Shown here piece after piece: positions 17,776 through 63,795 of a stretch of DNA of 64,000 bases. Each line of letters begins with the position of its first letter. The first letter of the stretch is position 1. The notes beneath the pieces were generated by a model that was given only the letters and a program-made list of their open reading frames with translations, did not search any database and was not told where the DNA came from. The stretch spans positions 16,944 through 80,943 of the forward strand of contig CAWADP010000017.1 of assembly GCA_963780805.1 (NCBI GenBank), written 5' to 3'. Origin of the DNA: an uncultured Alphaproteobacteria bacterium (GTDB lineage Bacteria; Pseudomonadota; Alphaproteobacteria; Acetobacterales; Acetobacteraceae). A program made the position numbers and the translations under genes.

Positions 17776-18146
17776 TCAGGCGTCTCGCAGTCCCGCCTCG
17801 AGGATCGCGACATCCTGCTCGACGGTGCCGCCGCTTACGCCAACGCCGGCGATCACCTGACCCTCGCGGGTGAGCGGCGCCCCGCGCCCATCGCGCAGTA
17901 CTTGCCCCCTGAGACCGCTATCAGCGGGAAGAGTTCATGCCCAGGCTGCACGAGCGGAAGCAGGTCGATCGTTCGCATCCCCACCAACGCCAACTCGATG
18001 GAGAAGGCCGGTGCCCCGCTCATGCGGTGCTGGAGGACCATGTTGCCGTGGATGTCGATTACTCAAACCGCGACCGGCACTTTGACGCGGGAGCCCTCCA
18101 GCTCGACACGGTCTGCGACACTCTTCGCCAACGTGAGCAAGTCCAT
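17776..18146 (-). pseudogene. GlcG/HbpS-like (DUF336) heme-binding protein gene, disrupted by in-frame TGA and a frameshift
   Basis: Minus strand: MDLLTLAKSVADRVELEGSRVKVPVAV-TGA(18065-18063)-VIDIHGNMVLQHRMSGAPAFSIELALVG...VSGG. The conserved tail QVLRDGRGAPLTREGQVIAGVGVSGGTVEQDVAILEAGL is in another frame. The shift falls in the C5 run at 17905-17909. Confidence 0.7.
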
Positions 18147-18167
18147 GCTGGGTGTCCTTTTCCAGGC

Positions 18168-18214
18168 AGCGGAGCGCGGAGACCAAGTCCAGCGAGCGGA
18201 GCGCGGAGACCAAG
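18168..18214. repeat. 20-bp direct repeat (agcggagcgcggagaccaag x2, 7-nt spacer)
   Basis: Copies at 18168-18187 and 18195-18214, just upstream of the glcG-like start on the minus strand. Confidence 0.8.
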
Positions 18215-18415
18215 GCGTGAACTTGTCTCGCCCGGGCCGGCAACCGCTCAGTGGCCGAGCCGCCCGACATACGATGCCAGGCGTTTTTCTACGTCTCCAG
18301 GCTTATGAAACCTGGGGCAGCCACAATCGGAATGCCCCACCATCTCAGATCACGGCGCGGTCATCTTGAACGAAGCCCGGGTACTGTTGGACGAACTTGC
18401 CAAAGCCATGCATCC

Positions 18416-18449
18416 GAATTGGGCCCGAAGCGGAATTGGGCCCGAAGCG
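18416..18449. repeat. 17-bp tandem duplication (gaattgggcccgaagcg x2)
   Basis: Read directly: 18416-18432 and 18433-18449. Confidence 0.85.
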
Positions 18450-18608
18450 GCGCTTGATGGGAGCCGTCGCCAACATCCGCTCCCCGCCCAACACGGCTCA
18501 CCGTAGGTAACTTGCCTGCCTCCAGGCCAAGGCCGCATGGAGCCGCGAGACCGGAGAACCGCCCCGCCATACGTCAGACCATCGAGCGGGCGGCCACACC
18601 CATCGCAT

Positions 18609-18640
18609 CCCAATCTCGTCTCACCCCAATCTCGTCTCAC
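18609..18640. repeat. 16-bp tandem duplication (cccaatctcgtctcac x2)
   Basis: Copies at 18609-18624 and 18625-18640, followed by hairpin cgtctcg-caaa-cgagacg at 18653-18670. Confidence 0.85.
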
Positions 18641-18787
18641 CACTGACGCGACCGTCTCGCAAACGAGACGCGAATGAGACGCGGCGCGCCCGCAAGACGG
18701 CAGCGCCAGAGCAACAAGCCGGCAATGCCACCACCCGGCGATGCCACCACAAGGTCCGATCGGTGACCGGCATGGCCATCGTCCGCG

Positions 18788-19171
18788 TCAGAATGGCCAG
18801 CGCCGCGTCCGGTTCGCCTCCTGCGCCGGGGTCAACCCCGCCGGTCCATCCGCCTGCTGCGGCGGCTGGCCGGCCGGATCGGCCCAGCAATCCGCGACCC
18901 CCAGGCTCCGCGTGCAATAGGGTTGCGGCGCGGGCGGCGGTTCCACCGGCCGGCAGTAGCTCAGCCCCTGGTCCAGCCGGACCGCGGAACAATCCCTGCC
19001 TGTCACCAGCGAATACAGCGCATCGAGCGGAGTGCGCTGGATCACCGCGACGCTGCCCGCCGTGGTGCCGACCACCACCGAGGTCAGCGTCACCGGATCT
19101 GCCCCGCAGCCACCCAGCGGGACCAGCAACGGGAGCAGCAACGGCATCATCACCCAGAGCGCGTATCGCAT
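18788..19171 (-). CDS. small lipoprotein, unknown function
   Basis: C-terminal 127 codons of the long ORF 18788..20326. MRYALWVMMPLLLPLLVPLGGCG has a signal peptide plus lipobox (LGGC). ATG confirmed at 19171. Confidence 0.6.
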   Translation of the reverse strand: MRYALWVMMPLLLPLLVPLGGCGADPVTLTSVVVGTTAGSVAVIQRTPLDALYSLVTGRDCSAVRLDQGLSYCRPVEPPPAPQPYCTRSLGVADCWADPAGQPPQQADGPAGLTPAQEANRTRRWPF

Positions 19172-19279
19172 GCGCCGCAGGCTGCGCCACAAAGGTAAAC
19201 CAACGGTTTCCGCCAGTTTGCCGACGCGCCGCCCCGCCGCTATGGTCCGCCGCCCAGCCAGAGTCGGGACCGGAGTCCA

Positions 19280-19933
19280 TTGCCAGACATCTTCGATGAG
19301 GTAGCGGAAGACCTGCGCGCCGAACGCACGCAGATCCTGATGAAGCGCTACGCCCCGCTGATGATTGCTCTTGTCCTGGTAGTCGTCGCCGCCACGGCCG
19401 GCTGGCAGGTGTGGCGCTGGCGCCAGGCCCGGGAAGATGTGGCCGCCGGCCAGCATTACCTGTCCGCGATGGCGCTGGAATCGACGCCCGCCGCCGCCGC
19501 CGACCGCAAGGCACTGATCTCCGAGTTCGATGCCATCGCCAAGGCATCGCCGGAGGGCTACCGCACCCTCGCCCGACTGCAAGCCGCGGCATTCCAGGCC
19601 GAGAACGGCGACCTGCCTGCGGCGCTGGCCCTGTGGAACGCCGTCGCCACCGACGATGGCGCCGACCCCCTGCTGCGCGGCGCTGCCAACTTGCTCTGGT
19701 GCGAGCATCAGATCGACACCGGCGATCCCGGCATCCTGGCCGGGCGCCTGAAGGCTCTGGCCGAGCCCGGCAACGTCTGGCGCCCGCTGGCCGAGGAGCA
19801 ACTTGCCCTGCTCGACCTCCGCCAGGGCAAGACGGCGGCGGCCAAGGCCACGCTGACCAAGCTGACGCAGGACTTCACGGCGCCCGAGGGCGTGCGCGGG
19901 CGGGCGGCTGCCCTGCTGGCACAGCTCGGCTGA
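19280..19933 (+). CDS. YfgM-like membrane-anchored TPR protein
   Basis: TTG start. N-terminal TM (LMIALVLVVVAATAGWQVW) followed by a TPR-like Ala/Leu-rich domain. Conserved position upstream of bamB-der. Confidence 0.72.
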   Translation: MPDIFDEVAEDLRAERTQILMKRYAPLMIALVLVVVAATAGWQVWRWRQAREDVAAGQHYLSAMALESTPAAAADRKALISEFDAIAKASPEGYRTLARLQAAAFQAENGDLPAALALWNAVATDDGADPLLRGAANLLWCEHQIDTGDPGILAGRLKALAEPGNVWRPLAEEQLALLDLRQGKTAAAKATLTKLTQDFTAPEGVRGRAAALLAQLG

Positions 19934-19938
19934 GCGGC

Positions 19939-20052
19939 ATGCCAAGGGAAATGCCGCGGCAAACGCCCGGGGGAACGCCCAGGGGGACTCCCAGCGGAAC
20001 GCTCGGGGAAATGCCCAACGAAACGCCCAGGAACACGGCGAGGGAAACGGCG
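19939..20052. repeat. degenerate 10-12-nt periodic repeat (GGGAAATGCC / GGCAAACGCC / GGGAACGCCC ...)
   Basis: Read directly. Translates as MPREMPRQTPGGTPRGTPSGTLGEMPNETPRNTARETA in the bamB frame, ahead of the signal peptide. Confidence 0.6.
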
Positions 20053-21384
20053 TTGGAACCAACCCGACTGGCGCGGCGCGCGGCGCTGCTGGCACCGCTC
20101 GCCCTGACCGGCTGCGGGCTGTGGGACAAGTGGTTCGGCGAGGCTCCGAAGCCACCGCTGCCTGGGATGCGGGAGCCGGTGCTGCCGCCGGGCCGCAGCC
20201 TGATGATGGATCCTTCGGCCCCGAAGGTCGTGCTGCCGCCGCCGGTGCGCAACGCCGCCTGGCCGCAGGCGGGTGGCAATCCGGCGCACGACATGGACCA
20301 TCTCGCCGCCAATCCGGCGCTGGCACAGGCCTGGTCCGTCAGCATCGGCGAGGGCGGCGGCTACCGCCGCAAGATCCTGGCGCAGCCGGTGGTGGCGAAC
20401 GGGCTGGTTTACACCATGGATTCCGCCGGCACCGTGACCGCCTTCACGCTCGCCGCCGGCGCGCAGGTCTGGCGCACCGAGACCAGGGGCAAAGATGTCA
20501 GCAGCAGCAACGTCGGCGGCGGACTGGGCGTGGGCGGTGGCATCCTGTATGCCGTGAACGGCCTGGGCGACCTTGTGGCGCTCGACGCCGCCAAGGGGAC
20601 TGAGCATTGGCGCACCTATCTCGGCGCGCCCGGGCGCTCTGCCCCGACCATCGTGGAAGGCCGTCTGTTCTTGACCACCATCGAGGACAAGCTGCTGGCC
20701 GTGGCCGCCACGGACGGGCACGTGATCTGGACCTTCCAGGGTGCCTCGGTGCAGCCCGCCGTGCTTGGCCGCCCGGCCCCGGCCTTTGCCAACGGGCTGG
20801 TCGTCGCCGGCTTCAGCTCCGGCGAGCTGGCCTGCCTGCGCGCGGAGAACGGCGCCGTGTTGTGGAGCGACAGCCTGGGCGGCTACGCCGGGGGCGCCGC
20901 CGGCGCGGACTTCGCGGCGATCCGCGGCCGCCCGGCGATCAGCGCGGGGCGGGTGGTAGCCACCGGCATGGGCGGGCTGATGCTCTGCCTGGACCTGCCG
21001 ACCGGCCGCCGGCTGTGGGAACTTCAGGTAAGCAGTGAGAACAGCCCGTGGGTGGCGGGGGAGTGGGTATTCATGGTGTCGCTGTCGCAGCAGATGGCGG
21101 CGCTGACCATGGCCGGGGGCAACGTCGCCTGGATGGCCCAGCTGCCGCGCTGGGTGAATGTGCAGAAGTCCACCAACCCGATCACCTGGTACGGGCCGAC
21201 CCTGCTGGGCGACCGGCTGGTGGTGGCCGGCACCGACAAGGAGGCGCTGTCGGTCAGCCCCTATACCGGTGCGATCCTGGGACGGCAGACGCTGCCCAGC
21301 GCGGCCTCGCCGCTGGAGCCGGTGGTGGCGGACGGCACGCTGCTGATGATCTCCGATGACGGGAAGCTGTTGGCGCTGCGCTAA
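19939..21384 (+). CDS. bamB: outer membrane protein assembly factor BamB (PQQ-like beta-propeller lipoprotein)
   Basis: Lipobox LALTGCG, then repeated WR/W-containing propeller blades (GLVYTMDSAGTVTAF, GILYAVNGLGDLVAL, GRLFLTTIEDKLLAV...). First ATG is 19939. An in-frame TTG at 20053 gives a canonical short N-terminus. Confidence 0.88.
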   Translation: MPREMPRQTPGGTPRGTPSGTLGEMPNETPRNTARETALEPTRLARRAALLAPLALTGCGLWDKWFGEAPKPPLPGMREPVLPPGRSLMMDPSAPKVVLPPPVRNAAWPQAGGNPAHDMDHLAANPALAQAWSVSIGEGGGYRRKILAQPVVANGLVYTMDSAGTVTAFTLAAGAQVWRTETRGKDVSSSNVGGGLGVGGGILYAVNGLGDLVALDAAKGTEHWRTYLGAPGRSAPTIVEGRLFLTTIEDKLLAVAATDGHVIWTFQGASVQPAVLGRPAPAFANGLVVAGFSSGELACLRAENGAVLWSDSLGGYAGGAAGADFAAIRGRPAISAGRVVATGMGGLMLCLDLPTGRRLWELQVSSENSPWVAGEWVFMVSLSQQMAALTMAGGNVAWMAQLPRWVNVQKSTNPITWYGPTLLGDRLVVAGTDKEALSVSPYTGAILGRQTLPSAASPLEPVVADGTLLMISDDGKLLALR

Positions 21385-21405
21385 GCGCGTGCCATCTCCG
21401 TTGCC

Positions 21406-22743
21406 ATGCTTCCCGTCGTGGTGATCGCCGGCCGCCCCAACGTCGGCAAATCGACCCTGTTCAACCGGCTGGTGGGCCGGCGCACGGCGCTGGTCGCCGA
21501 CACGCCGGGGGTGACGCGCGACCGCAAGGAAGCGGAGGCGCTGCTGCGCGGCCGCCAGGTGCGGCTGGTGGATACCGCCGGGCTGGAGGAGGCCGCGCCG
21601 GAGACGCTGGCCGGCCGTTTGCGCTCCGGTGCCGAGACCGCGGTCGGGTCCGCCGACCTGGTGTTGTTCGTGGTGGACGCGCGCGAGGGGCTGGTGCCGG
21701 CGGACCGACACTTCGCTCAGTGGCTGCGCCGGCAGGGCCGGCCGGTGCTGCTGGTCGCCAACAAGGCGGAGGGCCGCGCCGCCGATTCCGCCGTGCTGGA
21801 GACTTATGCGCTGGGGTTGGGCGACCCGGTCGCGGTGTCCTCGGAGCATGGCGAAGGCATCGCGGCGCTGATGACGGAGATCGCCGAGCGTTTGCCTGCG
21901 GCGGACGCGGTGGCCGAGACGGATGCGCGGCCGCTGAAGCTGGCGGTAGTCGGCCGGCCGAATGCCGGGAAATCGACCCTGATCAACCTGCTGCTCGGCG
22001 AGGAGCGGATGATCACCGGCCCCGAACCCGGCCTGACGCGCGACGCCGTGGCGTCGGTGCTGCACGACACCGAGGGACCGATCGAACTGGTGGATACCGC
22101 CGGCCTGCGCCGCCGCGCCCGCATCGAGGCACCGTTGGAGAAGCTATCGGTGGGCGCGGCAATCGGCGCCCTGAAGCTGGCCGAGGTAGTGGTGCTGGTG
22201 GTGGACGCCGCCGAGGGCCTGCACGATCAGGACCTTCAGATCGCCCGCCTGATAGAGCGCGAAGGTCGTGCCTGCGTCATCGCGCTGAACAAGTGGGACG
22301 CGGTGCCGGATCGCGGCGCGGCCCGCCGGGCGGTGATGGAGCGGCTTGAGGAGAGCCTGGCGCAGATGAAGGGCGTGGAGGTGGTGGCCGTGTCGGCGCT
22401 GACCGGCGTCGGGATGGAGCGGCTGCTGCCGGCGGTGCGCCGCGCCCATGCGGTGTGGAACCGGCGCCTGCCCACGGGCGAGCTGAACCGCTGGTTCGAG
22501 ACGGCGCTGGAACGCCACCAGCCGCCGCTGGTGAACGGGCGACGGCTGCGGCTGCGCTACATGACGCAGGCGAAGGCGCGCCCGCCCACGTTCGTGGCAT
22601 TCGGCACGCGCGCGGAGCTGATCCCCGAGGACTACCAGCGGTATTTGGTGAACGGCCTGCGCGAGACGTTCGATCTGCCGGGCACACCTATCCGGCTGCA
22701 ACTGCGGGGGACGAAGAACCCGTTTGTCGCCGGGTCTGGCTGA
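21406..22743 (+). CDS. der: ribosome biogenesis GTPase Der (EngA)
   Basis: Two GTPase domains (GRPNVGKST x2, DTAGL x2, NKAE/NKWD) and a KH-like C-terminus. Confidence 0.97.
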   Translation: MLPVVVIAGRPNVGKSTLFNRLVGRRTALVADTPGVTRDRKEAEALLRGRQVRLVDTAGLEEAAPETLAGRLRSGAETAVGSADLVLFVVDAREGLVPADRHFAQWLRRQGRPVLLVANKAEGRAADSAVLETYALGLGDPVAVSSEHGEGIAALMTEIAERLPAADAVAETDARPLKLAVVGRPNAGKSTLINLLLGEERMITGPEPGLTRDAVASVLHDTEGPIELVDTAGLRRRARIEAPLEKLSVGAAIGALKLAEVVVLVVDAAEGLHDQDLQIARLIEREGRACVIALNKWDAVPDRGAARRAVMERLEESLAQMKGVEVVAVSALTGVGMERLLPAVRRAHAVWNRRLPTGELNRWFETALERHQPPLVNGRRLRLRYMTQAKARPPTFVAFGTRAELIPEDYQRYLVNGLRETFDLPGTPIRLQLRGTKNPFVAGSG

Positions 22744-23030
22744 AGCGGCGTCATCGTCATGCCGGCGAAATCCGGCATCCACGATCTGCATTCGGCTGGT
22801 TGACCGCCCGCCGTTGTGATCTTCTCCGGGTGCAGTTTGTTGTTGATCAATTCGGGCGCCGGTGCGATTGTGGTCCTCAAGGTGCCGGAAATAAGACGGA
22901 TCTAGATTTCGATTGCCGCCGCGTATCCGGCCAAGCGAAGAGACATGCCCAGGATGGGTGCTCCCAAAGATGGGTGCGCGCCTCATAAAAGCCTTGCGAG
23001 GTTCAAACCTCGCCACGCCGGGGGATATGG

Positions 23031-24129
23031 ATGTCTGAGCAACGAACTCCTTCTCGAGAAGCATCGATTGTCTTGCAAGCTCCACCATGCGACGTGAGAC
23101 CGGCGCTTTGCCTGGGTGTCAGCGTCTCAACCGTGGGGAGCGAACACCTTCTCGTCGCCGACGATCTTGAGATCTGTGTCGAGGGGTTGCCCGACGCTAT
23201 GGCGCGCCGGGTCGTGTCTCGCTTCAATGGCCGCGAGACCGCCACCTCCATCGCGGCGGCAGCTGGATTACCCGTGGCGCAGGTGATCGCCATTGTGACA
23301 AGGCTTATGGCAGCCGGCGTCGTGGTGGACCTGCGCGGCGGCAGGGAGTCGGATCTGACACCGGATGCCTTCATTGCCCTTTGTCAGCGCTCGTATTCAA
23401 TGTGGAAAACGCGCCTCTTCGGTCATCCGCTGTGGCGTGGATTGAACACGGGAGAGGCGGCGCCATCCCAGTTCATAGGCTGGCTGCTGGAGAGTTACCA
23501 CTTCGCGGAAGGCGTGAACCTGCGCTTGCCGTTGGCGATCGCGCATTGCCACCAGCGCGAAATCCGCGATCTGCTGTCTCAGCACTATGCCGAAGAGTAT
23601 GATCATGAAAGGTTCTTCTTGTCGGCGCTGGCGGAACTGGGCGTCGAACCGGAGATTGTCATAGCGGCGCGGCCCTTGCCTGGTACCCGGGCCATCCTGA
23701 ACCATATGCGCGACTGTGCTCGCACGGATCCGCTGCACTACGCGGTGTGCGGCGGCTTCCTTGAAGCGACCGGGACTGATCGCACGCTTGGGCGCGTATT
23801 CATCGCAAACCTCGAACGGCACTATGCACCGGAAAATCCGCTGGTTGTACCAGCCACTGATCGATCACGCAGCCCTCGACGACCTGTACGGACACCGTGG
23901 GCTGCTTGCCGCGCTCTGCCGCTGCGTACCCGAGCTGCCATGGGAGCGTGCATCGGCCGCGCTTGGCTCCTGCGCCTTGTTCGTCGAGACGCTGGAGCTT
24001 TGGTCGACGGACATCATGATGACGTACGCGCAGCCAGCACTTACGCCTGACCGGAGCCCCTGGCATTACCGTAGAATGGTTGCCGCGAGAGACACCGGGC
24101 ACGTTGGACTGGCGGGTGAGCGGCCATGA
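23031..24129 (+). pseudogene. RRE(PqqD)-like winged-helix domain fused to heme-oxygenase-like iron-containing redox enzyme domain, paralog 1; frame broken by an apparent 1-nt insertion near 23847
   Basis: Frame A 23031..23846 (...GWLLESYHF...HYAEEYDHERFF...LERHYAPENPLV) continues colinearly with paralog 2 only in frame B from 23848 (YQPLIDHAALDDLYGH...). Frame B ends in an ATGA overlap with the next gene at 24126-24129. Confidence 0.7.
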
Positions 24130-25163: not shown

Positions 25164-26492
25164 ATGGTCGAAGCCGTGGCATACGCTGAGCGATTCAGCG
25201 GGTCCGCCGCGATGTCCCGGCGCGCCGAGCGCGTGGTCGCCGGCGGGACGCAACACGACAGTTGGCGGCTGCAGCCTTTCCCGGTGTACTTCAGCGAAGC
25301 GCGCGGCCCATTCAAGTGGGACATCGACGGGCATCGCCTGGTGGACTGCTGGATGGGGCACGGCGCACTGTTGTTCGGCCACGGTTATCGACCGGTTGTC
25401 GACGCAGTCGCCCGTCAACTGGTCCGCGGTACCCATCTCGGGGGGGCACACGATCTTGAAGTGCGTTGGGCGGAGCTGGTCTGTGAACTGATCCCCTCTG
25501 CGGAGCGTGTCCGCTTTACCTCATCCGGCACCGAAGCGACCCAGCTCGCGCTCCGGGTCGCCCGAGCATTCACCGGCCGTAACCACGTCGTGAAACTCGA
25601 TGGTCACTTCCACGGCTGGCACGACGAGGCGCTCGCGCATTTTGTGGAACCAGCTTCGGCCGGTCTCAATGCCGGCTCGCTCGACGGTGTCAGTATTGGC
25701 GATCCGTGGTCTGTGGCGTCCATCGCCCGGCTTCTCGCCGAGGAGCCCACGGCTGCCGTCATACTTGAACCGGGAGGCGGTGGCAGTGGTGCGTTGCCGT
25801 GGAGCCCGGACTTCCTTCGAGAGCTGAGGCAAGCAACGCAGGAGCACGGCACACTGCTGATCTTCGACGAAGTCGTCAGTGGATTCCGCTATAGCTCCGG
25901 TGGTGTGCAGCAACTCTGTGGTGTGACACCCGATCTTACGGTGCTTGGGAAGATCCTGGCTGGCGGGCTTCCGGGGGCTGCGGTCGCCGGCCGAGCCGAT
26001 GTCATGGCAGTGTTCGGCGCGGGAACAACAGGCGCGGGCGGACCGGCAAAGGTCGTGCACACCGGCACATTCAACGCAAACCCGCTGTCTGCCGCTGCCG
26101 GCATAGCGGCGCTCGAGCGGGTTGGGGATGGCACAGCGCAGGAGGCCGCAGCTTCGGCGGCCGAGACGCTCGCCCGGCTGGTCAATGAGGCGGCTCGCGC
26201 TAACGACGTCGATGTCTGCTTATATACCCAAAGTTCGATCTTCCACGTGCTGATAGGCGCGCGACGTGCAGGATCTCCACTTGGACCGTCTGCGTCGGCG
26301 ATGACACTTTACAAAGCGCATGCGAACTCATATAACATTCTTAGAAGAGCGCTGCTGGTTGAGGGGGTTGACTGCCATCCGCTGCACGGTTGGCTTTCAG
26401 CTGCGCACGAAACCTCAGCCGTGCATGAGGCGGCGGCCGCGTTCGATCGCGCGTTTCGCCAACTCCACCGGTCCACGGAATTCGCGCTATAA
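25164..26492 (+). CDS. class-III PLP-dependent enzyme, glutamate-1-semialdehyde 2,1-aminomutase-like
   Basis: RVVAGGTQHD..., SSGTEATQLALRVARAFTGR, IFDEVVSGFR, and PLP-lysine context DLTVLGKILAGGLPGAAV as in HemL-type enzymes. 442 aa. Confidence 0.88.
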   Translation: MVEAVAYAERFSGSAAMSRRAERVVAGGTQHDSWRLQPFPVYFSEARGPFKWDIDGHRLVDCWMGHGALLFGHGYRPVVDAVARQLVRGTHLGGAHDLEVRWAELVCELIPSAERVRFTSSGTEATQLALRVARAFTGRNHVVKLDGHFHGWHDEALAHFVEPASAGLNAGSLDGVSIGDPWSVASIARLLAEEPTAAVILEPGGGGSGALPWSPDFLRELRQATQEHGTLLIFDEVVSGFRYSSGGVQQLCGVTPDLTVLGKILAGGLPGAAVAGRADVMAVFGAGTTGAGGPAKVVHTGTFNANPLSAAAGIAALERVGDGTAQEAAASAAETLARLVNEAARANDVDVCLYTQSSIFHVLIGARRAGSPLGPSASAMTLYKAHANSYNILRRALLVEGVDCHPLHGWLSAAHETSAVHEAAAAFDRAFRQLHRSTEFAL

Positions 26493-29170: not shown

Positions 29171-30668
29171 TCAGCCGCGGGCAAACAACGCCGCGCCACT
29201 GCCGGCGATACGGCCGAAGGTGACCCCGGCCACCAGTCCCGTGCCGCTGCCGTAATTATGATAATAAAGGCCACCGACGATCTCCCCGGCGGCGAACAGT
29301 CCGGCAATCGGCGTGCCGCAGGTGTCTTCGACCTGCGCGGCGGTGGACACCTTGAGGCCGCCGAAAGTGAACGTCACGCCCGCCGTCACGCCGTAAGCAT
29401 GATATGGCGGCGTATCCAGCTTCTGCGCCCAATTGGTCTTGTCCACGGTGAGGCCAAACGTGCGCAGCCCGTCATGGATGTTCGGGTTGAACGCCACGTC
29501 CGGCCGCGGCGCATCGTTATAGGCGTGCAGCGTCGCCAGCACCGCCTGCGGATCGACCCCCGTCAGCTTGGGCGCCAGCACCTCCAGCGTATTCGCGGTC
29601 TCCTTGGTGATGCGGGCGATGCGATACTCCTCGCGCAGCAGGTGGTTGATCTTCGAGTCGAAGATCTGCCAGCCGAACAAGCCGGGCTGCTTCATCACCT
29701 CATGGCCGTACTTGGCGTAGGTGTAGGAATGGAAGTCGGCACCTTCATCCAGGAACCGCTCCCCCCGCGCGTTCACCAGCACGCCGAACGGATAGTTGTG
29801 CTTCTGGAACCGGTCGCCGATGGTCAGATCGCCGAACGGCGGGGCGTTCATGTCCCACTGCACCGCATGTGCGCCGGACCAATGTCCGGCGACCGCGGCG
29901 CCAATGTCGATCGCCATGCGGTGGCCGTAGCCCTGGTTGAAGCGGGTGCCGCGCACCTTGGCCAGGTCCCAGTTTGGTCCCAGGTAGCGTGCCCGCATCT
30001 CGGCGTTGGATTCGAAGCCGCCGCAGGCCAGCACCACCGACTTCGCGCGCAGATCGAAGCCGCGGCCGTCGGTGGCGCACGCGCACGCCCTGGATGCGCG
30101 CATCGTCGTGCAGCAGCGCATAGGCGGTGGTGTCGTACAGCACCGGCACGCCGGCCTTCTCCAGCGCCGCGTGCAGCGTCGGCACGAGTTGCGCGCCCCC
30201 GCCCAGCAGGTGGCACGCCAGCCCGCCCCAGAACTTGAATTTCCCCCCGACGTTGAACGCCTGCCGCCCGAGCGCCGGCTGGAACCGCACGCCATGCTGG
30301 CGCAGCCACAGCGCCGAGGCGTAGCTGTTGGAGATCAGCACCTCGGTCAGGTCCGGATCGCAGCGGTATTCGGTCAGCCGGCCCATATCGTCGAAATACT
30401 GGCCCTCGGTGTAGGTGCCGAAATCGATAGTCGAAAGGTCCAGGTCCTTGATGTCCGGCGCCAGCGCGAGGAGGTCGTCCACGCCGGCGTAGACGAAACG
30501 AAACGCTCCCCCGGTAAAGGCCGAGTTGCCGCCGCGTGCTTCCTGTGGCGCGGTTTCCAGCATCGCCACCGAGGCACCCGCCTCATGCGCCGCCAGCGCC
30601 GCGTTGGCCGCCGCGTTGCCCGCGCCGATCACGAGCACGTCCACTTGCGTATAGGTCGTTGGAGTCAT
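29171..30668 (-). pseudogene. tcuA: FAD-dependent tricarballylate dehydrogenase (TcuA)-like gene, frame broken near 30077
   Basis: N-part VDVLVIGAGNAAANAALAAHEAG...NSAFTGGAFRF...ARIQGVRV in one frame. C-part ATDGRGFDLRAKSVVLACGGFESNAEMRARYLGPNWDLAKVRGTRFNQG...TFTFGGL...LFAAGEIVGGLYYHNY in another. The junction is consistent with a 1-nt insertion in a gcgcgtgcgcc context. Confidence 0.8.
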
Positions 30669-33424: not shown

Positions 33425-34811
33425 ATGACAGCCGCCGCTACCATCGCCGCCACCTTGGCCGAACGTATCGCCGCCGTGCGCTACGACGACCTGCCGCCGG
33501 AGGCGGTGCACTGGGCAAAGGTCGCGATCCTCGACACCATTGGCTGCACGCTGGCCGGCTCGACCGAGCCCTGCGCCCGCATCGTCGATCTCGTGACGAC
33601 GGGAGGTGCATCCGCCGGCCCGTGCCTGATCTTCGGCACCAACCGCCGGACCGCAGCGCTGGACGCGGCGCTGATCAACGGCACCGCGGCGCACGCGTTG
33701 GACTATGACGATGTCAGCAACACGCTGGGCGGTCATCCGTCGGCGCCCATCGTTCCGGCGCTGTTTGCGCTGGCCGAAACGCGTAACGCCGGCGGCCAGG
33801 CGTTCATCACCGCCTTCGTCACCGGCTTCGAAACCGAGACCCGCATCGCCCGCGGTGTGAATTTTCATCATTACGAAAAGGGCTGGCACCCGACCGCGAC
33901 GCTCGGCGTGTTCGGTGCCACCGCGGCGTGCTGCCACCTGCTCGGCCTGCCCGCGGACCGGACTGCCGTGGCGCTCGGGCTGGCGGCGTCGTTCGCCTCC
34001 GGCGTGAAGGCGAATTTCGGTACCATGACGAAGCCGCTGCATGTCGGGCATTGCTCGCGCAACGGTCTGCTGGCCGCGTTGCTGGCGGCCGACGGCTTCA
34101 CCGCCAATCCCGGCGCGTTCGAGCACAAGCAGGGCTTTCTGCAGGTGTTCAACGGGGCAGGGAATTTCGATGCCGACGCGATCACGCACGGCTGGGGCGA
34201 TCCCTGGGACATCGAGCAGCCGGGTGTCGGCATCAAGCAGTACCCGTGCTGCGGCAGCACGCATCCGGCGGTGGATGCGATGCTGATGCTGGTGCGCGCG
34301 CATGATTTGACTCCGGCGATGGTGGAACGGGTGGATTCCTGGACCCATCCGCGCCGCCTGGCACACACCAACCGGCCGGCGCCGAACAGTGATCTGGATG
34401 CGAAATTCAGCGTGCAGTACCTGCCTGGCGCGCGCGCTGACGAACCGTGCGGTGAAACTGGAGCACTTCGTCGGCGACACTTACCGCGATCCGGACGTCC
34501 AGGCGCTGCTGCCGCGCATCCACGCGGCGCCGCACCCCGAGATGCGCATGGACAACAGCGGCGAACATTTCGGCGCCGAGGTGCGGGTCACGTTGACCGA
34601 CGGCCGCGTGTTGGCGCAGCGCGTCCGGCAGGCGATCGGGCGCGGCGTGGCCAATCCGCTGCCGGCGGAATTGCTGGAGGCGAAGTTCCTCGATTGTGCG
34701 TCGCGTGTGCTACCGGAGGCGAAGGCGCAGCGGTTGCTGACGTTGCTGCGGGGACTGGAGGAGGTCGATGACCTGTCCCTCGATGTTGGAGACAGGCTGG
34801 CAGCGGGTTGA
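33425..34811 (+). pseudogene. MmgE/PrpD family protein gene, frame broken by an apparent 1-nt insertion at about 34421
   Basis: Frame A to ...DLDAKFSVQY (34420). Frame B from 34422: CLARALTNRAVKLEHFVGDTYRDPDVQALLPRIH... The two parts together make a colinear, full-length PrpD-like protein (AHALDYDD, GWHPTAT, KPLH.GH motifs). Confidence 0.85.
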
Positions 34812-41114: not shown

Positions 41115-41300
41115 GAGGGAGGCCGGGCGCGAGGGAAGACGGGCGCGAGGGAAGACGGGGACGCGGAGAGAAGAAGCGAGGGAAGTAGAGTCGCGGGAAG
41201 ACGGGGACGCGGAAAGGAGAGGCGAGCGAAGTAGAGTCGCGGGAAGTGGAGGCGCGGGAAGTGGAGAGGCGCGGGAAGAAGAGGCGAAGGAAGCAGGAGA
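41115..41300. repeat. purine-rich (GA) array of nested short direct repeats
   Basis: gggcgcgagggaagac x2, acggggacgcgga x2, gaagtagagtcgcgggaag x2, gcgcgggaagtggag x2. In the divergent intergenic region between the MFS gene and 41366. Confidence 0.8.
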
Positions 41301-47204: not shown

Positions 47205-47922
47205 CTATTTCCTCAGCATCATGCCGCCGTCGATCTGCAACACCTGGCCCGTTATGTACGCGTTGGTCATCAGGAAGATATAGGCCGATGCGACTTCTTC
47301 CGGCGTCCCGAGACGCCCCAGTGGATTGGCCTGGGAATAGGAGCGTATCCTGGCGTCTATGTCCTCGCGCGGCTTCGCGCGCCACAGCGCGGTGTCCATG
47401 AACGCCGGGGCGACGACGTTCACACGCACACGCGGCCCGAGTTCCGAACCCAGTCCTTGCGCCATGGCGGCGAGCGCCCCGTTCGCCACGTAGCTCGCCG
47501 CCGCGTCCTGCGCCCGAACACCGCTCCCCGAGGTGAACGTCATGCTACCGCCGTCGCGGACCAGGGGTGCGGCGAAACGGGCGATCAGCAGATTGGTCCA
47601 GAAACTTCGAGTGCAGCACATGCCGCATCGTGTCGAGCGGCGTCCGCAGGAAGCCGCCCGCCATGGTGTCGCCGATCATCGAGACAAGATGGTCGTGCTC
47701 ACGCAACGCCGCGATGAGTTTCTCAAGCGCAGCATGATCATGGGCATCGCCCTCGATGCTCTGCACGTCGCCGCCGAGTTCTGACGCTGCTGTCGAGAGC
47801 TTCACCGGATCCCGCCCGACGATGACCAGCGAAGCGCCTTGTGCCCGAGCCTGGCGGGCAATCTCCAAGCCGATGCCGGAGCTGCCGCCAATGACGACAA
47901 CTTTGCTACCCTCGAGCAGCAT
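47205..47922 (-). pseudogene. SDR family oxidoreductase gene, frame broken by an apparent 1-nt insertion at about 47601
   Basis: N-part MLLEGSKVVVIGGSSGIGLEIAR...MRHVLHSKF. C-part WTNLLIARFAAPLVRDGGSMTFTSG...YVANGALAAMAQGL...GRLGTPEEVASAYIFLM...ITGQVLQIDGG in the adjacent frame. Confidence 0.8.
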
Positions 47923-50466: not shown

Positions 50467-50508
50467 CTATTCCTCCTACTTCATCCCAGCGCAACGCTTC
50501 AACGTTCT

Positions 50509-50637
50509 CTACGGCGGTTGAATGCCCTTTTGGTCATATTCTGGAATGGTCAAGTCGGTAGTCCATGTCCCTGCTTCGTCAACACGAACGCCATTAACCT
50601 TCCCATCCTTGACCAGCAAACATTGACCAATTCGCAC
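50509..50637 (-). CDS. possible 42-aa ORF
   Basis: Not in the ORF track (<60 aa). GTG start preceded by AGGAGAG at 6-nt spacing. Product MRIGQCLLVKDGKVNGVRVDEAGTWTTDLTIPEYDQKGIQPP. Confidence 0.3.
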   Translation of the reverse strand: MRIGQCLLVKDGKVNGVRVDEAGTWTTDLTIPEYDQKGIQPP

Positions 50638-57179: not shown

Positions 57180-57321
57180 GACAGCGAACGTTCCGGTTTG
57201 GTCAGGACGATCCGCGAGGGCAGGGCAAACGGTTGAAGGGACGGGAGGGGCCGCCGCTCTGGCGGCTGCAATGCGGACACGAGCCGCGGGATCAATCCAA
57301 CCGGCGATGACGTTGGCAGCA

Positions 57322-57452
57322 CCGCATTTTCACCACGGAGATAGCGCGGAGAGCCACGGTGCCCACGGAGTCGGAGCTTCCCCGGCAGTCGGGGAGCCTC
57401 CGTCTCCGTGATCACCGTGGCTCTCCGCGCTATCTCCGTGGTGAAAATGCGG
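57322..57452. repeat. MITE/REP-like element, family C: perfect 40-bp inverted repeat with 51-nt spacer
   Basis: ccgcattttcaccacggagatagcgcggagagccacggtg (57322-57361) is the exact reverse complement of 57413-57452. The spacer contains a second imperfect hairpin. Confidence 0.9.
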
Positions 57453-57752
57453 CGAATCGTGAGGCACCACCAGTGGATGATCCCCCTGCGTTTCGTCCGG
57501 ACTGTGGTTCACCCGATTGCCCTGCTTTGCCGGCGGCCTAAATCAACCTCACCCCGACAACACCCCGACAGTGTCAACCTATATAAGGGCTGGTATAACA
57601 CCCATCCGCCTCTATCCCACCCGCTACCCTCTGTCTGGCGCCGCCGCCGCGCATCCTCTATCCGCTCCGCCACGCCGGGCACGCCCCACGCATGCCCCTG
57701 GGCACGCCCCGCATGCCCCGGGCCCGCCCGGCACAGGAGACCGCGCTGCCCG

Positions 57753-58373: not shown

Positions 58374-58478
58374 CCGGCAATCCGGCCTCAACTCGGCCGC
58401 TTGCGGCAGGATGCTTGCGCCCGAACTCGCGTCATCCGCGCTATGCAGGCGCCAGTTGCCCTGCGAAGGAGGATCGTC

Positions 58479-59483
58479 ATGCGCCGCTTTCTGTCGGCTG
58501 CCATCGCTCTGGCGGCAATACTGATGCCGGGGCTCGCCCACGCCCAGGGCCAGCCGCAGACCCTGGTGGACCGCGCCACGCTCGCGATCCAGGAGATGAT
58601 GACGCAGCAGGTCTCCCAGGATCCGCGCATCATGCTGCAGCGTGCCCGTGCGGTGATGATCTGCCCGCGGGTGTTCAAGGCCGGGTTCATCCTGGGCGGC
58701 TCGGGCGGCGATTGCGTATTGCTCGCGCGGGCGGGCAACGGCACCTGGTCGTATCCGTCGTTCTACACCATCGGCAGCGGCAGCATCGGCTTCCAGGCCG
58801 GCATCGAGGACAGCTCGCTGATGATGACGATCATGACGCAGCGTGGGCTGAAAGCGGTGATGGACAGCCAGTTCAAGCTGGGGGCGGACGCCTCGGTGGC
58901 GATCGCCACGGTCGGCGGCACGCTGGGTGGCGCGACCACCGCGGCGGTGGGGGCGGACATCGTGGTGTTCGCGGCGACGCGCGGATTGTTCGGCGGCGTT
59001 TCGGTGGAGGGCAGCCTCATGTCGCTGCTCAGCACCTGGAACGCGGCGTATTACGGCCAGCCGTATGCGGCACGGCAGATCGTGCTGCAGATGCAGGGGG
59101 CCAATCCCGGGGCGAACCCTCTGCGCGAGGTGCTGACGCGCTACGGCACCCCCTCGACGATGAAGGTATCCGTGCCACCACCCGTGTATGGACCGAACGC
59201 GCAGGGGGGGTATCCGCCGCCGGGGCAGGGATACGTAGCGCCGGCCCAGGGGTATCCGCCGCCCGGCCAGGGCGACAGGGCGCCGCCGCAGGGGAATCCG
59301 CAGCCGGGACAACAGAGCTATGCCCCGACCGGTCCTGGCTATGCGCCCGCCTATCCGGCGGCGAACCAGGACGGTGGTGGTCAGAACGAAGCTGCGGCCG
59401 GTGCCGACCAGGGCGGTCAGCCGGTGCAGTTGCAGCCGAACGCGCCGGTACAGCAGCAATCGCTGCCGCCACCGACGCGGTAG
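58479..59483 (+). CDS. SYLF (DUF500/Ysc84-like) lipid-binding domain protein with Pro/Gly/Gln-rich C-terminal tail
   Basis: GAAGGAGGA RBS. Signal peptide MRRFLSAAIALAAILMPGLAHA. ...KAGFILGGSGGDCVLLAR...FYTIGSGSIGFQAG... Tail GYPPPGQGYVAPAQGYPPPGQG. Confidence 0.8.
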   Translation: MRRFLSAAIALAAILMPGLAHAQGQPQTLVDRATLAIQEMMTQQVSQDPRIMLQRARAVMICPRVFKAGFILGGSGGDCVLLARAGNGTWSYPSFYTIGSGSIGFQAGIEDSSLMMTIMTQRGLKAVMDSQFKLGADASVAIATVGGTLGGATTAAVGADIVVFAATRGLFGGVSVEGSLMSLLSTWNAAYYGQPYAARQIVLQMQGANPGANPLREVLTRYGTPSTMKVSVPPPVYGPNAQGGYPPPGQGYVAPAQGYPPPGQGDRAPPQGNPQPGQQSYAPTGPGYAPAYPAANQDGGGQNEAAAGADQGGQPVQLQPNAPVQQQSLPPPTR

Positions 59484-59667
59484 AGGCCTTGGCTGGATAG
59501 GGCGGGGAAAGTTCGGAACCCTTGAGGTCCCTCAAGGAGGGGGTGTTCTTTCCACCTCCGCCTCCACTTCCAACGATAACTCCAACTCCACCCCCAACTC
59601 TTCGCTTCTAACTTCCGACTCCCCGCGCTTCCAACCGTCCGCTTCAACGCATCGCCGCTTCGCCGCA

Positions 59668-60652
59668 TCACGCGACCGCGTATTCCCGCGTCTCGCCAAA
59701 CCCCAGCACGTCGAAATCCTCCACCGCAACACCGGCCTCCGCCTGTGCCGCGCGCAGCGCCCGCACCGGCGCATCGATGCCTTCGTCGGTCAGTTGGAAG
59801 GTGCCGAAATGCATGCCCAGGCTGCGGCCCGGCCGCAGGTCGCAATGCGCCCGCACGGCTTCCTCCGGGTTCATATGCTGCTGGCGCATGAACCAGCGCG
59901 GTTCATAGGCGCCGATCGGGAGCAATGCGAGATCGATGCGGGGAAACCGCTCGGCGATCTCGGTAAAATGCGGGCAGTAGCCGGAATCCCCGGCGAAATA
60001 CACCACCGCGCCGCCGGCCTCGACGACGAACCCACCCCACAGGCTGCGGTTCCTGTCATGCAACGTCCGCGCCGAGAAATGCTGTGCCGGCACGTAGGTG
60101 ACGCGAGCGCGGGCCAGGTCCGTGCTCTGCCACCAGTCCAGCTCCACCGCACCGCTGATGCCCGCCTTGGCCAGAGTGGCGCGCATTGCCAAGCCCGGTC
60201 GCCGCCGGTGGCGCCCAACGCGCGCGCACGCGGCGCAACGTGGGCAGGTCCATGTGGTCGTAATGATTGTGCGAGACCAGCAGCAGATCCACCGCCGGCA
60301 ACACGTCCAGGCCCTGTCCGGGCCGGCGCGCCCGGCGTGGGCCCGCGAACGCCACGGGGCTGCAGCGCTGCGACCAGATCGGATCGAACAACACCGCGAC
60401 GCCGCCGACCTGCACCAGGAACGTCGAGTGGCCGACGAAGGTCACCGCGATGCGGTCGGGTGCCGCACGCGAGGGCGGCGCGAAGGGCGGGTCCTCGACA
60501 TGCGCCGGCCACGGATGCCTGCGGCGGGTGCGGCGCCAGCGGCGCAGGTCCTCGCGGGTCTTGCCGTAGGGCGCGTAGGGATTGAAAAATCGTTCGCCGT
60601 TGAAATGATCACTGCGCTCCGCCACCGGCGGCACCCGGATTGATCCGTCCAT
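59668..60652 (-). pseudogene. MBL-fold metallo-hydrolase (NAPE-PLD-like) gene, frame broken near 60178-60181
   Basis: N-part ...VTFVGHSTFLVQVGGVAVLFDPIWS...LLVSHNHYDHMDLPTLRR...GLGNA in one frame. C-part TLAKAGISGAVELDWWQS...YFAGDSGY...LPIGAYEPRWFM...HMNPEEAV in the adjacent frame. Confidence 0.8.
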
Positions 60653-60710
60653 TCGTCCAGTCCTGTTGGGCCCCTGCCCGCTCCGATATGGGGCGGCGCA
60701 CGCGGCCACG

Positions 60711-61145
60711 CTACGCGAGAGGCACCCGCAAGATCAGCGCGTCGCCGCCATCGGCATAATAGCGCCGACGGCGCCCGGCTTCGACAAATCCCGCCTGTCG
60801 GTAGAGCGCCTGGGCGGCGGCATTGTCTACCGCAACCTCGAGGAACATCGTCCGCGCATCCTGCTCGCGCCCCGCCGCCATCGCGGCGGCCAGCAGGGCG
60901 CGCGCCACGCCCTGACGGCGCGCTTCGGGCGCGACCGCCAGGGTGAGCACCTCTGCCTCATCCATGGTGACGCGGGCCAGCAGCAGGCCGCCGCGCGGAT
61001 CAACCAGGCCGAACACACCCGGCATGACGAGTTGAAGGGCGAAGGCGTCCTCGGCCCAGGCTTCGCGCGGCGGGAAGGCAGCGGCATGGATCGCCACCAT
61101 CGCCGGGATGTGCACCGGGGTGGCGCGCTGCAACGGCTCTGCCAT
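60711..61145 (-). CDS. rimI: ribosomal-protein-alanine N-acetyltransferase RimI
   Basis: MAEPLQRATPVHIPAMVAIHAAAF...LTLAVAPEARRQGVARALL...LEVAVDNAAAQALYRQAGF. The open frame continues upstream to 61253 through the 12-nt repeat, giving (GGII)n. Confidence 0.83.
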   Translation of the reverse strand: MAEPLQRATPVHIPAMVAIHAAAFPPREAWAEDAFALQLVMPGVFGLVDPRGGLLLARVTMDEAEVLTLAVAPEARRQGVARALLAAAMAAGREQDARTMFLEVAVDNAAAQALYRQAGFVEAGRRRRYYADGGDALILRVPLA

Positions 61146-61241
61146 GCCACCGGTCATCCCACTGATGATCCCACCGGTGATCCCACTGATGACCCCACCG
61201 ATGACCCCACCGATGATCCCGCCGATGATCCCACCGATGAT
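61146..61241. repeat. 12-nt tandem repeat, 8 copies (ccaccgatgatc and variants)
   Basis: Read directly. Lies in the tsaB 3' end / rimI 5' extension, so it is open in both minus-strand frames. Confidence 0.9.
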
Positions 61242-61909
61242 CTGGGTGGCCATCCCGCTGGTGGCGGGCGAAGGCCGCCCGCCGGCGGCCGCACCGCGGG
61301 CGGATCGACGTAGAGCGGCTGGGCCGGCAAAGGCGACAGTTCGCCGCCGAGGCGGCGGCCGCCCGCCACCGCGACATGGCGTGCGGTGGGCAGGCGGGCG
61401 TCGGTCAGCATCACGTCGGCGCCGCGAGCCGCCAGCCGGGCCGCGACCGCAATGGCGGCGTCACCGGCCACCGCGACCGGGCCGTCCGGGCGGGGCAGGT
61501 CGTCCAGCGCATAGGCGAGGACAATGCCTTCGCGTTCCAGGAACACGCGGCCGCGACGGCTGTCGATCGCGGTCCAAAGCCGCCGGACGCCCAGGTACGG
61601 CAGAGCGTCGGCCAGCGCCTCGCCGACCGTCACGCCCACCACCGGGACGCCGGCACCGAGTGCAACCCCGTGCGCCAGCGCGAGGCCTGCCCGGATGCCG
61701 GTAAAGCTGCCGGGGCCGACGGTGACGGCGATCAGATCGAGGGCGGGGGCAGCGACGCCGGCCTCGCGCAGGACCGCGTCGGCCATCACCGGCAACAGCG
61801 CGGCGTGACCCTGCGCCGCGGCCTGCTGGCGGACGGCCCGCAGGGCGCCGTCCAGCACGACGCCGGCGGAGCACTGTGCCAGAGCGGAATCGAGGGCGAG
61901 CACAAGCAT
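61154..61909 (-). CDS. tsaB: tRNA threonylcarbamoyladenosine biosynthesis protein TsaB
   Basis: MLVLALDSALAQCSAGVV...AVTVGPGSFTGIRAGLALAHG... C-terminal tail SSVGSSAGSSVGSSVGSSVGSPVGSSVG is encoded by the 12-nt repeat. ATG confirmed at 61909. Confidence 0.85.
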   Translation of the reverse strand: MLVLALDSALAQCSAGVVLDGALRAVRQQAAAQGHAALLPVMADAVLREAGVAAPALDLIAVTVGPGSFTGIRAGLALAHGVALGAGVPVVGVTVGEALADALPYLGVRRLWTAIDSRRGRVFLEREGIVLAYALDDLPRPDGPVAVAGDAAIAVAARLAARGADVMLTDARLPTARHVAVAGGRRLGGELSPLPAQPLYVDPPAVRPPAGGLRPPPAGWPPRSSVGSSAGSSVGSSVGSSVGSPVGSSVG

Positions 61910-62228
61910 GTCGTGCAGATGTAGCTGCGGACCGGAGATTTCTCCAATCGGCGGAGGACGGCGCGGCAGGCGCCGCGGAACACACATAACCGGACACCCA
62001 CGACAAGCAGCTCCGCCCGACCGCCTCGTTGCACTGACACGGCAACGCTTTTGTGTTTCGCCTGGGTGGGTTGGCCTATCCCGGCCGTCGTCGCTAAGGT
62101 CTGCCCGCGGCGGCAGTCCAGCCGCCGTCTGCCTGCTGCGGAACGCTGACACTTCGCGGTTACGACCGGATCATGCCTCGATCAATGCGTCGATGCCGGT
62201 TACCGACCTCCACCGATCGGGTATCCAT

Positions 62229-63795
62229 ATGATCCGCCTGTCCACTTCCGCCCCCGATTTTTCCGACGCCTTCGCCAACCTGCTCGCCCAGACGCGCGAG
62301 ACCACCGAAGACGTCGGCCAGGCGGTCGCCGCCATCATCGCCGACATCCGCGCCCGCGGCGACGCCGCCCTGCTCGAGTACACCGCGCGCTTCGACCGCC
62401 TGTCATTGAGCGCCGACCGCCTGCGCATCCCCGCCGGCGAAATCGATTCCGCCGTCGCCGCGGTGCCGCGCGAACAAGCCGCCGCGCTCGACCTCGCCGC
62501 CACCCGCATCGAGGCCTTCCATCGCGCCCAGCTCCCCGCCGACCTCCGCTTCACCGACGATGCGGGCCTGACGCTGGGGATGCGCTGGACGCCGCTGGAT
62601 GCGGTCGGCCTCTATGTGCCGGGCGGCAAGGCGGCGTATCCGTCATCGGTGCTGATGAACGCCGTTCCGGCGCGCGTTGCCGGCGTAGACCGCATCGCCA
62701 TGTGCGTCCCGACGCCGGATGGTGTGCTGAACCCGCTGGTCCTGGCGGCCGCGCGCCGCGCCGGCGTGGCGGAGGTCTACCGTATCGGTGGCGCCCAGGC
62801 GGTGGCGGCGCTGGCCTATGGCACCGCCAGCATCGCCCCGGTGGACCGCATCGTCGGCCCGGGCAACGCCTATGTCGCCGAGGCCAAGCGGCAGGTGTTC
62901 GGCCATGTCGGCATCGACGCCATCGCCGGCCCGTCGGAGGTGGTCATCCTCGCCGACCGCTCCAACGATCCGACGCCGAATCGCCCTGGATCTGCTCGCC
63001 CAGGCCGAACATGACGAGGCAGCGCAAGCGATCCTGATCACCGACGACACCCGCTTCGCCGACGCGGTGGCCGAAGCGGTGGCCGCGGCGATCCCCACCC
63101 TGCCCCGCGCCGCCATCGCCGGCGCAAGCTGGCGGGCGCATGGCGCGGTGATCGTGGCGCGCGACTGGGCGGAGGCGGTGGAGCTGGTCAATCGTCTGGC
63201 GCCAGAGCACCTGGAACTGATGCTGCCGGACCCGGAGCCGGTGTTTGCCCGGATACGGCACGCCGGAGCGGTATTCCTGGGCGGCTGGTGCCCGGAGGCG
63301 CTGGGCGACTACGTCGCCGGCCCCAACCACGTGTTGCCCACCGGGCGCACGGCGCGATTCGCCTCCGGCCTGTCGGTGTTCGATTTCCTGAAGCGCACGA
63401 CTTTCGTGGCGGCGGACGCGGCGGCGTTGGCGCGGGTCGGTCCCGCCGCCGTGGTGCTCGCCGAGGCCGAAGGCTTGCAGGCACACGCCCGCAGCGTTGC
63501 CGTGCGGCTCGCGGACAGGATGGTGTCGGGCGGAAAAATCGTCGGGCGGAAAAGCGCAGCGCCTGCCGCCGTCCCCAGGCGCGGCGGAAGGCGCGGCGCC
63601 CGCCCTACGTTTTTCCGCCCGACGCATGTTCGGGTGCACTACAGTCGGGCGCACCATAGTCGGGCGCACCACAGTCGGGCGCACCACAGTCGGGCGCACT
63701 ACAGGGCGCACCACGGTCGCGTGCTTGACCTCGCCCTCCCCGCCGCTCATCTTCGCCCGAGAATCGACCAAAATCAACCCATGAACGAGGTCTGA
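62229..63795 (+). pseudogene. hisD: histidinol dehydrogenase gene with an apparent 1-nt insertion at 62973 and an about 85-codon C-terminal read-through
   Basis: Frame A ...GLYVPGGKAAYPSSVLMNAVPARVAGV...GPGNAYVAEAKR...AGPSEVVILADRSNDP. Frame C from 62974: RRIALDLLAQAEHDEAAQAIL...PEHLEL...GDYVAGPNHVLPT...HARSVAVRL. No stop until 63795. Confidence 0.9.
63628..63714. repeat. 15-nt tandem repeat, about 5.5 copies (agtcgggcgcaccac and variants)
   Basis: Read directly. Translated as HYSRAHHSRAHHSRAHHSRAHY in the hisD read-through frame. Preceded by 14-bp inverted repeat arms at 63525-63538 / 63610-63623. Confidence 0.9.

Follow-up and report, generated by a model that had tools for sequence, protein, structure and literature searches.

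Where true gene decay is under way, deletions, insertions and nonsense codons occur in a mixture and essential genes are spared, and the classic error of nanopore sequencing is deletion of a base within a homopolymer. Nanopore basecalling errors linked to methylation have also been documented (Lohde et al. 2024, PMC11610573; a study of strand-specific mismatches, PMC11610603), with the published methylation-induced errors mainly being purine-to-purine or pyrimidine-to-pyrimidine substitutions, not insertions (PMC11610573, PMC11610603). We here analyzed frame breaks in a stretch of 64 000 nucleotides (the window), which comes from an uncultured Acetobacteraceae species and would belong to a metagenome-style assembly built from long reads, as deduced for the sequencing platform from Flye-style contig names together with the error mode. 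A sequence-only reading had proposed that seven genes of the window are split by frame breaks, and all seven cases were indeed present, none of them more than about 20 nt away from its proposed position:

17779..18146, minus strand, GlcG/HbpS-like gene, with a Pfam PF03928 match on the joined translation
23031..24129, plus strand, TenA/PqqC-like (haem-oxygenase-like) gene, the 'first cassette gene' of the sequence-only reading, extra C at 23849/23850
29174..30668, minus strand, tcuA-like FAD-binding oxidoreductase, extra C at 30070, CCGTCGGTGG versus CCGTGGTGG
33425..34811, plus strand, MmgE/PrpD-family gene, extra C at 34420/34421, GTACTG changed to GTACCTG
47205..47922, minus strand, short-chain dehydrogenase (SDR) gene, extra A in the A3 run 47600–47602, CAGAAACT versus CAGAACT
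59668..60652, minus strand, metallo-beta-lactamase-fold (MBL) hydrolase gene, extra G at 60176, CCAGAGTGG versus CCAGATGG
62229..63795, plus strand, hisD, the syntenic hisD-infA copy, extra C at 62975/62976, GACGCCGAAT versus GACGCGAAT

Six of these genes carried an extra single base (at 23850, 30070, 34421, 47602, 60176 and 62976), in agreement with the initial claims that six of the seven breaks behave as one extra base and that most are found outside long homopolymers. With regards to the exact break positions, that proposed for PrpD at 34421 was exact, but the other five insertions had to be moved by a few nucleotides on the basis of sister assemblies, i.e. from 23847 in the TenA/PqqC-like gene (where GTACAG has become GTACCAG), from about 30077 in the tcuA-like gene, from 47601 in the SDR gene, from 60178–60181 in the MBL hydrolase gene and from 62973 in hisD. 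Rejoining of the frames into colinear proteins could also be confirmed, with a single Pfam match spanning the junction in five of the joined genes (HbpS-like, FAD_binding_2, MmgE/PrpD N and C domains, adh_short_C2 and Histidinol_dh). The joined tcuA-like protein covered positions 1–414 of the PF00890 profile and the joined SDR protein covered positions 5–235 of 236 in adh_short_C2, while the two MBL fragments matched positions 3–63 and 65–200 of Lactamase_B_2 and the PF00815 matches of hisD divided at profile position 232/233. Orthologues of the tcuA-like protein aligned in frames -3 and -1, giving a net +1 shift, alignments of PrpD orthologues stopped at 34420 and restarted at 34422, and those of the MBL hydrolase changed frame within 60161–60195. 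An eighth candidate break suggested by tblastn at 58394 was rejected, being only an intergenic frame difference between a histidine-phosphatase gene and a Ysc84-like gene.

Each of the six sites was judged by comparison with assemblies of the same species, located via protein look-ups, that represent other samples with different populations (0.1–1.2% divergent) and that were 99.4–99.9% identical to the window. The extra base was absent in 7/7 such sister assemblies at 23850, in 5/5 at 30070, in 3/5 at 34421 and in 9/9 at 47602, as well as in the one sister assembly (L195) that could be compared for each of the sites at 60176 and 62976 (1/1 in both cases). Intact copies had furthermore been called in sister assemblies for all six of the broken genes. 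These included a 365-aa TenA/PqqC-like protein (P0001, 99% identity, encoded on L194), a 498-aa tcuA-like gene in each of the five assemblies, a 461-aa PrpD gene in L196, L198 and L200, a 238-aa SDR gene in the eight sister loci holding the whole gene (L206–L213, with the ninth locus, L214, holding only part of it), a 327-aa MBL hydrolase gene in L195 and a 437-aa HisD protein (P0139, 99% identity), also on the 2.1-Mb contig L195. The bases on either side of the six sites were identical across all assemblies, and the PrpD site occurred in three readings, as GTACTG (L198, L199 and L200), GTACCTG (L197) or GTACCG (L196). In the sister species, no nucleotide-level orthologues of the glcG-like, TenA/PqqC-like or SDR genes were found. 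Given its absence from other assemblies of the same species, the extra base in these six genes, including hisD, has very probably arisen as a consensus error in the long-read assembly, with a smaller chance of a few of the breaks being true private alleles.

The hisD gene is required for histidine prototrophy. In every relative having an unbroken hisD match, hisD was followed by infA, and a hisD paralogue was present on contig C9 of the studied genome. The stop codon of the syntenic copy was also lost, at 63541–63543, in comparison to L195, the only sister copy, with an extra G at 63541 and a C at 63543 where L195 has an A and reads ATC TAG.

The glcG-like gene was found to carry lesions of another kind. 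Using tblastn with the homologue P0019 (85% identity), we found the TGA at 18063–18065, an in-frame deletion of eight codons near 17993 that takes out ISERKAYT, and loss of one base near 17884–17888. The TGA was hence present on the minus strand as originally described, but the frame shift had been wrongly assigned to the C5 run at 17905–17909, since translation through this run stays in frame and gives SGGKY, as in the homologues. Homologues at 85% identity were intact, having 131–136 aa. Both the -1 shift and the eight-codon deletion were identical in L192 and L193, and since these two lesions are thus common to two other assemblies, the glcG-like gene is, as judged from this comparison, a genuine species-level pseudogene and the sole real one of the seven. 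The sequence-only reading had kept real decay open on account of this gene, which was justified in view of the lesions shared between independent assemblies. The TGA was private to the studied assembly, with both L192 and L193 reading TGC at this position, and may represent either a genuine mutation of later date or an erroneous substitution. That it would encode selenocysteine was also considered, but this idea was dropped because the homologues carry Cys (TGC) there.

For an analysis of the genome as a whole (8.1 Mb in 28 contigs, with a marker-gene completeness of only 90%), we compared it with two sister species over 794 kb, where 276 ORFs had an orthologue and the alignments covered 330 kb of coding sequence. 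This revealed 39 breaks spread over 13 contigs, with 32 being net +1 and one net -1 (sign test, 8e-9). A reverse control using ORFs of the studied genome against the references gave nine 'breaks', most of which appeared to mirror the shifts of the studied genome itself because out-of-frame tails stay open in GC-rich DNA; breaks were therefore instead assigned to either genome by codon-position GC. That pattern was unbroken in the reference at 32 of the 39 breaks, 29 of those being net +1, and the studied genome showed phase shifts at its breaks as checked for the first 25. The error density was roughly one in every 10 kb of coding sequence, with about 9–14% of conserved genes affected genome-wide. 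When counted without references, +1 phase shifts numbered 81 per Mb for the studied genome and 24 per Mb for the two reference genomes. Essential single-copy genes were among those broken, including leuS (contig C10, 207782–207787) and class I lysS (contig C6, 468527–468529), neither having a second copy, and ilvE was broken twice. No nonsense codons in a credible coding frame were found when each stop was inspected for the initial 147 orthologues, which span 186 kb. In-frame stops noted for 16 reference ORFs were located, by inspection, either upstream of the true start or in frames resembling non-coding sequence. When the genome-wide break density was compared with that of the window, six breaks were found versus 3.9–4.5 expected (P = 0.2–0.3), i.e. 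a rate about 1.5 times the genome-wide estimate and not significantly different from it. Sister assemblies with 'contig_' names each had their own private indels, comprising 45 insertions versus 13 deletions, and these broke other genes, such as that of an RND pump.

It was thus the genome-wide rate, the affected essential genes, a window not being unusual and the independent assemblies that together led us to read the six breaks as consensus errors. The original preference for consensus or assembly errors, motivated by hisD being required for prototrophy, was thereby upheld, with the six insertions fitting a genome-wide insertion-only error mode and being absent in assemblies of the same species. 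With high confidence, we consider the six breaks as probable residual consensus errors in genes that would be intact in the organism, and the glcG-like gene as a species-level pseudogene; the assembly would in general contain residual consensus errors that almost all are single inserted bases.

The sequence context of the insertions was not random. A GTAC motif was found within 4 nt at 12 of the 32 insertions (about 38%) versus 1.8% expected (p = 2e-13), and the GTAC-associated insertions added a G or C directly next to the palindrome. When analyzed without references, a plain 4-mer phase test gave only a diluted GTAC signal, which was sharpened by splitting the sites according to flanking base, whereupon +1 phase shifts were seen at 6.3% of GGTACd/hGTACC sites (one flanking G or C) versus 2.5% of other GTAC sites (p = 6e-11). 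No comparable GTAC excess of +1 phase shifts was seen in the two reference genomes. About 60% of the insertions were located away from GTAC, with many found in CGAA-like contexts, a second type of context that recurred, e.g. as CG[A]A and CC[G]AAC. The GTAC-adjacent insertions are most likely, we infer, caused by nanopore miscalling, in that modified GTAC sites would be misread by the basecaller with an extra flanking G or C as the result. A further and more tentative possibility, which we consider somewhat less probable than its opposite, is that these insertions are the footprint of a DNA modification specific to GTAC in this uncultured lineage of Acetobacteraceae.

It could alternatively be argued that the six insertions are real mutations in a population undergoing gene decay, being a histidine auxotroph among other things. 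The true pseudogene in the same window, the location of the window in a variable region where assemblies differ in IS content, and the fact that the sister assemblies are other samples, such that private alleles are possible in principle, would all agree with that notion. We nonetheless find it very improbable, because 9–14% of the conserved genes would be affected, including the single-copy leuS and lysS that cannot be lost, because insertions outnumbered deletions 32:1 with zero credible nonsense codons, and because the insertions were linked to a motif and private insertions differed in each sister assembly. Protein identity was moreover 79–94% on both sides of the breaks in the tcuA-like, PrpD and hisD genes, and 68–72% before versus 82–83% after that of the MBL hydrolase. 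Marginally less probable still is that co-existing strains were collapsed into one consensus, with insertions arising where haplotypes differ and not from basecalling. This species is found in many samples with 0.1–1.2% divergence, and contig C17 was 99.5% identical to L195 when the adjoining contig C14 was 99.95% identical to it, but strain collapse predicts neither the 32:1 insertion bias nor the GTAC link, and the flanking bases of the six sites did not differ between assemblies. If true, the genes would still be intact in the organism and the practical verdict would be the same. That the breaks are decoded, e.g. by programmed +1 ribosomal frameshifting or transcriptional slippage, has only the colinear rejoining of frames in its favor and is exceedingly unlikely, as no slippery sequence or stimulatory context was common to the six sites, the same proteins are encoded in one frame in sister assemblies and sister species, and a genome with some 700–800 sites of this kind would have no precedent.

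Read literally, the breaks would depict a histidine auxotroph with widespread gene decay, instead of the assembly noise that they very probably represent. Similar splitting probably affects about one in ten of the conserved genes in this genome, and frame-shift correction is therefore needed before annotation, pseudogene counts, completeness estimates and metabolic reconstructions, both for the studied bin and for the sister bins of the same data set. The GTAC link provides a cheap flag for suspect sites and hints at DNA modification. If such a GTAC modification holds true, errors in long-read bins could yield methylation motifs without signal data and flag false pseudogenes.

Comparing these findings with the known systems, the genome resembles the decaying genomes of recently host-restricted bacteria in having many conserved genes interrupted, with several independent lesions in the glcG-like gene, but differs from these in that 32 of 33 single-base shifts were insertions, that no credible nonsense codons were found and that leuS and lysS were affected. 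From long-read-only (nanopore) assemblies it differs in having almost only insertions, mostly outside homopolymers, instead of homopolymer deletions. It is similar to these in its single-base indels over all large contigs, in genes being split into two colinear ORFs, in a completeness of 90% despite long contigs and in errors occurring at different places in each sister long-read assembly; the errors were absent from a k141_ assembly (a name in the style of short-read assemblers) and from Logan contigs. In comparison to methylation-induced nanopore errors, the effect is here an added flanking G or C whereas those published are mainly substitutions, but the short palindromic motif (GTAC) and the recurrence at the same site in independent assemblies, as with the three readings at the PrpD site, are features in common.

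Six-frame translation revealed a colinear continuation in a second frame for all seven genes that the sequence-only reading had listed as split, and conceptual joining of the HbpS-like (glcG-like), FAD_binding_2 (tcuA-like), MmgE/PrpD, SDR and histidinol dehydrogenase proteins gave a single unbroken Pfam match over each junction. The two MBL hydrolase fragments covered Pfam Lactamase_B_2 profile positions 3-63 and 65-200, and for the TenA/PqqC-like 'cassette' gene confirmation came from homologues that bridge its junction. An eighth candidate, at 58394, was dropped as merely an intergenic frame difference. Six of the seven breaks are, in our judgement, very probably assembly artefacts, and one of the genes, the glcG-like, is an ordinary pseudogene.

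Using orthologues from sister species, a single surplus base in the window could be placed at 30067-30084 in the tcuA-like gene, at exactly 34421 in PrpD, within 60161-60195 in the MBL gene and at 62973-62976 in hisD. A protein search also found intact versions of the TenA/PqqC-like and hisD proteins, each at 99% identity, and exact-protein look-ups gave 24 loci in other public assemblies of the same species, forming three groups (ENA 'contig_' names, Flye-style; ENA 'k141_' names, MEGAHIT default style; and Logan contigs), with the likely sequencing platforms read from the contig names. Most loci were 98.8-100% identical to the window, with the two k141_ loci at 92.8-96.5% and one locus (L212) at about 98%.

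Extra bases of the window in same-species sister assemblies, with the length of the unbroken gene called there.
23850, TenA/PqqC-like gene: absent in 7 of 7; 365 or 362 aa
30070, tcuA-like gene: absent in 5 of 5; 498 aa
34421, PrpD gene: absent in 3 of 5; 461 aa
47602, SDR gene: absent in 9 of 9; 238 aa
60176, MBL hydrolase gene: absent in 1 of 1; 327 aa
62976, hisD: absent in 1 of 1; 437 aa

The PrpD site was read as GTACCTG in one sister locus (L197), as in the window, as GTACCG in another (L196) and as GTACTG in three, which is what a systematic miscall would give. Since every 'contig_' assembly carried private indels (45 insertions versus 13 deletions in 27 kb), the error mode is a property of the data set and not of the organism; these assemblies also split other genes, such as that of an RND pump. 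Two more indels set the window apart from sister assemblies and broke no confirmed coding frame. One, an additional C at 25269 that is missing in Logan contig L194 only, lies close to the 5' end of an aminotransferase ORF; the other, a private GG at 41263-41264, is located upstream of a methyltransferase gene. The region at 50500-50516 varies among strains, with a 2.6-kb IS66-family element of three genes found in L206, L207, L209, L211 and L212 and absent from the window; in L208 the element is reversed and lies beside a longer peroxiredoxin gene.

The density of frame breaks was determined over the whole genome assembly (8.13 Mb, 28 contigs, marker-gene completeness only 90%), using 794 kb of reference DNA from G004 and G001, sister species at about 85% nucleotide identity; ORFs with a coding GC pattern were retained and searched against the genome by tblastn. 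The alignments, 330 kb over 276 orthologous ORFs, showed 39 frame breaks, 32 of them net +1 and one net -1. The codon-position GC pattern of the reference ran unbroken at 32 of the 39 (29 being net +1), spread over 26 genes and 13 contigs, and in the first batch the GC phase of the studied genome shifted by one at such breaks. By inspection of the first 147 orthologues, no in-frame stops were seen outside pre-start stretches or non-coding-looking ORF frames. The broken genes included two without a second copy, for leucine-tRNA ligase and for class I lysine-tRNA ligase, and ilvE was broken twice. A reference-free scan gave 81 +1 GC3 phase shifts per Mb, versus 24 in the two references, with -1 shifts being similar (52 versus 45 per Mb). 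The window, with six +1 breaks against 3.9-4.5 expected at the genome-wide rate (P = 0.2-0.3), could thereby be compared with its genome as the sequence-only reading had proposed, and the consensus or assembly error favoured there is supported for six breaks by the genome-wide +1 excess together with the missing bases in sister assemblies.

Two histidinol dehydrogenase family genes were found in this genome. The broken copy is the syntenic hisD, because it is followed by infA, as in every relative with an unbroken match, and the copy on contig C9 falls with a separate paralogue group. The window is furthermore chromosomal, since a sister assembly has a 2.1-Mb contig (L195) on which the window's contig (C17) runs straight on into C14. 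This also places C17 and C14 next to each other on the chromosome; the C17 end (83016) joins the C14 end (349655) after about 27 nt. An IS element (DDE_Tnp_1) is present in L195 and absent from C14. At the hisD stop codon (63541-63543) the window reads ATCGTCGGG versus ATC TAG GG in L195, the sole sister copy, whereby the stop is lost and the frame, even without the break at 62976, would continue for another 84 codons, to 63795, crossing a spacer rich in repeats as far as the start of infA. The stop loss is probably a further consensus error. The spacer (63540-63700) holds an element of about 70 nt with more than 20 matches across the contigs of the genome, on both strands at 76-92% identity, which translates to HHSRA repeats and resembles a family of REP-like intergenic repeats. 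In a sister species (G003, contig C77, locus L005) hisD leaves its frame for about 190 codons before regaining it; that assembly (9.4 Mb, 130 contigs) may contain the same kind of indel errors.

The glcG-like gene, with homologues of 131-136 aa at 85% identity, carries three lesions relative to these.

Near 17884-17888: frame change, acting as a one-base loss
Near 17993: 8-codon in-frame deletion (ISERKAYT)
18063-18065: TGA replacing Cys28

The shift had earlier been assigned to a C5 run, which is in fact read in frame, the frame change lying near 17884-17888. Both the shift and the 8-codon deletion recur in two other assemblies, each having TGC where the window has TGA, and the genuine decay that had been kept open holds for this gene, which is a real pseudogene of the species. 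Its TGA would be a private mutation that arose later, or else a substitution error.

GTAC occurred within 4 nt of 12 of the 32 genome-wide insertions (expected 1.8%, p = 2e-13), 10 of the 12 being GGTAC or GTACC, and the PrpD and TenA/PqqC-like sites of the window both have GTAC followed by the extra C. Reference-free, a +1 phase shift was seen at 6.3% of GTAC sites with exactly one flanking G/C versus 2.5% of other GTAC sites (p = 6e-11), with -1 shifts at GTAC sites being flat in this genome and no GTAC +1 excess in the two reference genomes. A second inconsistently read GTAC is the intergenic one at 18379-18385, where the window has GGGTACTG, L192 has GGTACTG and Logan contig L193 has GGGACCG, three readings from three assemblies. 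The remaining approximately 60% of insertions had mixed contexts, often CGAA-like, perhaps a second context of systematic error. Examples are CC[G]AACTCG, at 58423 in the window and also in leuS, CG[A]AAT or CG[A]ATT, found in sister assemblies, and GACG[C]CGAAT, the hisD site (62976).

The GTAC motif itself is real, being equally common in this genome and the references (1.53 versus 1.55 per kb). We infer a modified GTAC in this organism, and nanopore sequencing as the source of the reads; nearby methylation is a documented source of nanopore errors, mostly substitutions (PMC11610573, PMC11610603).
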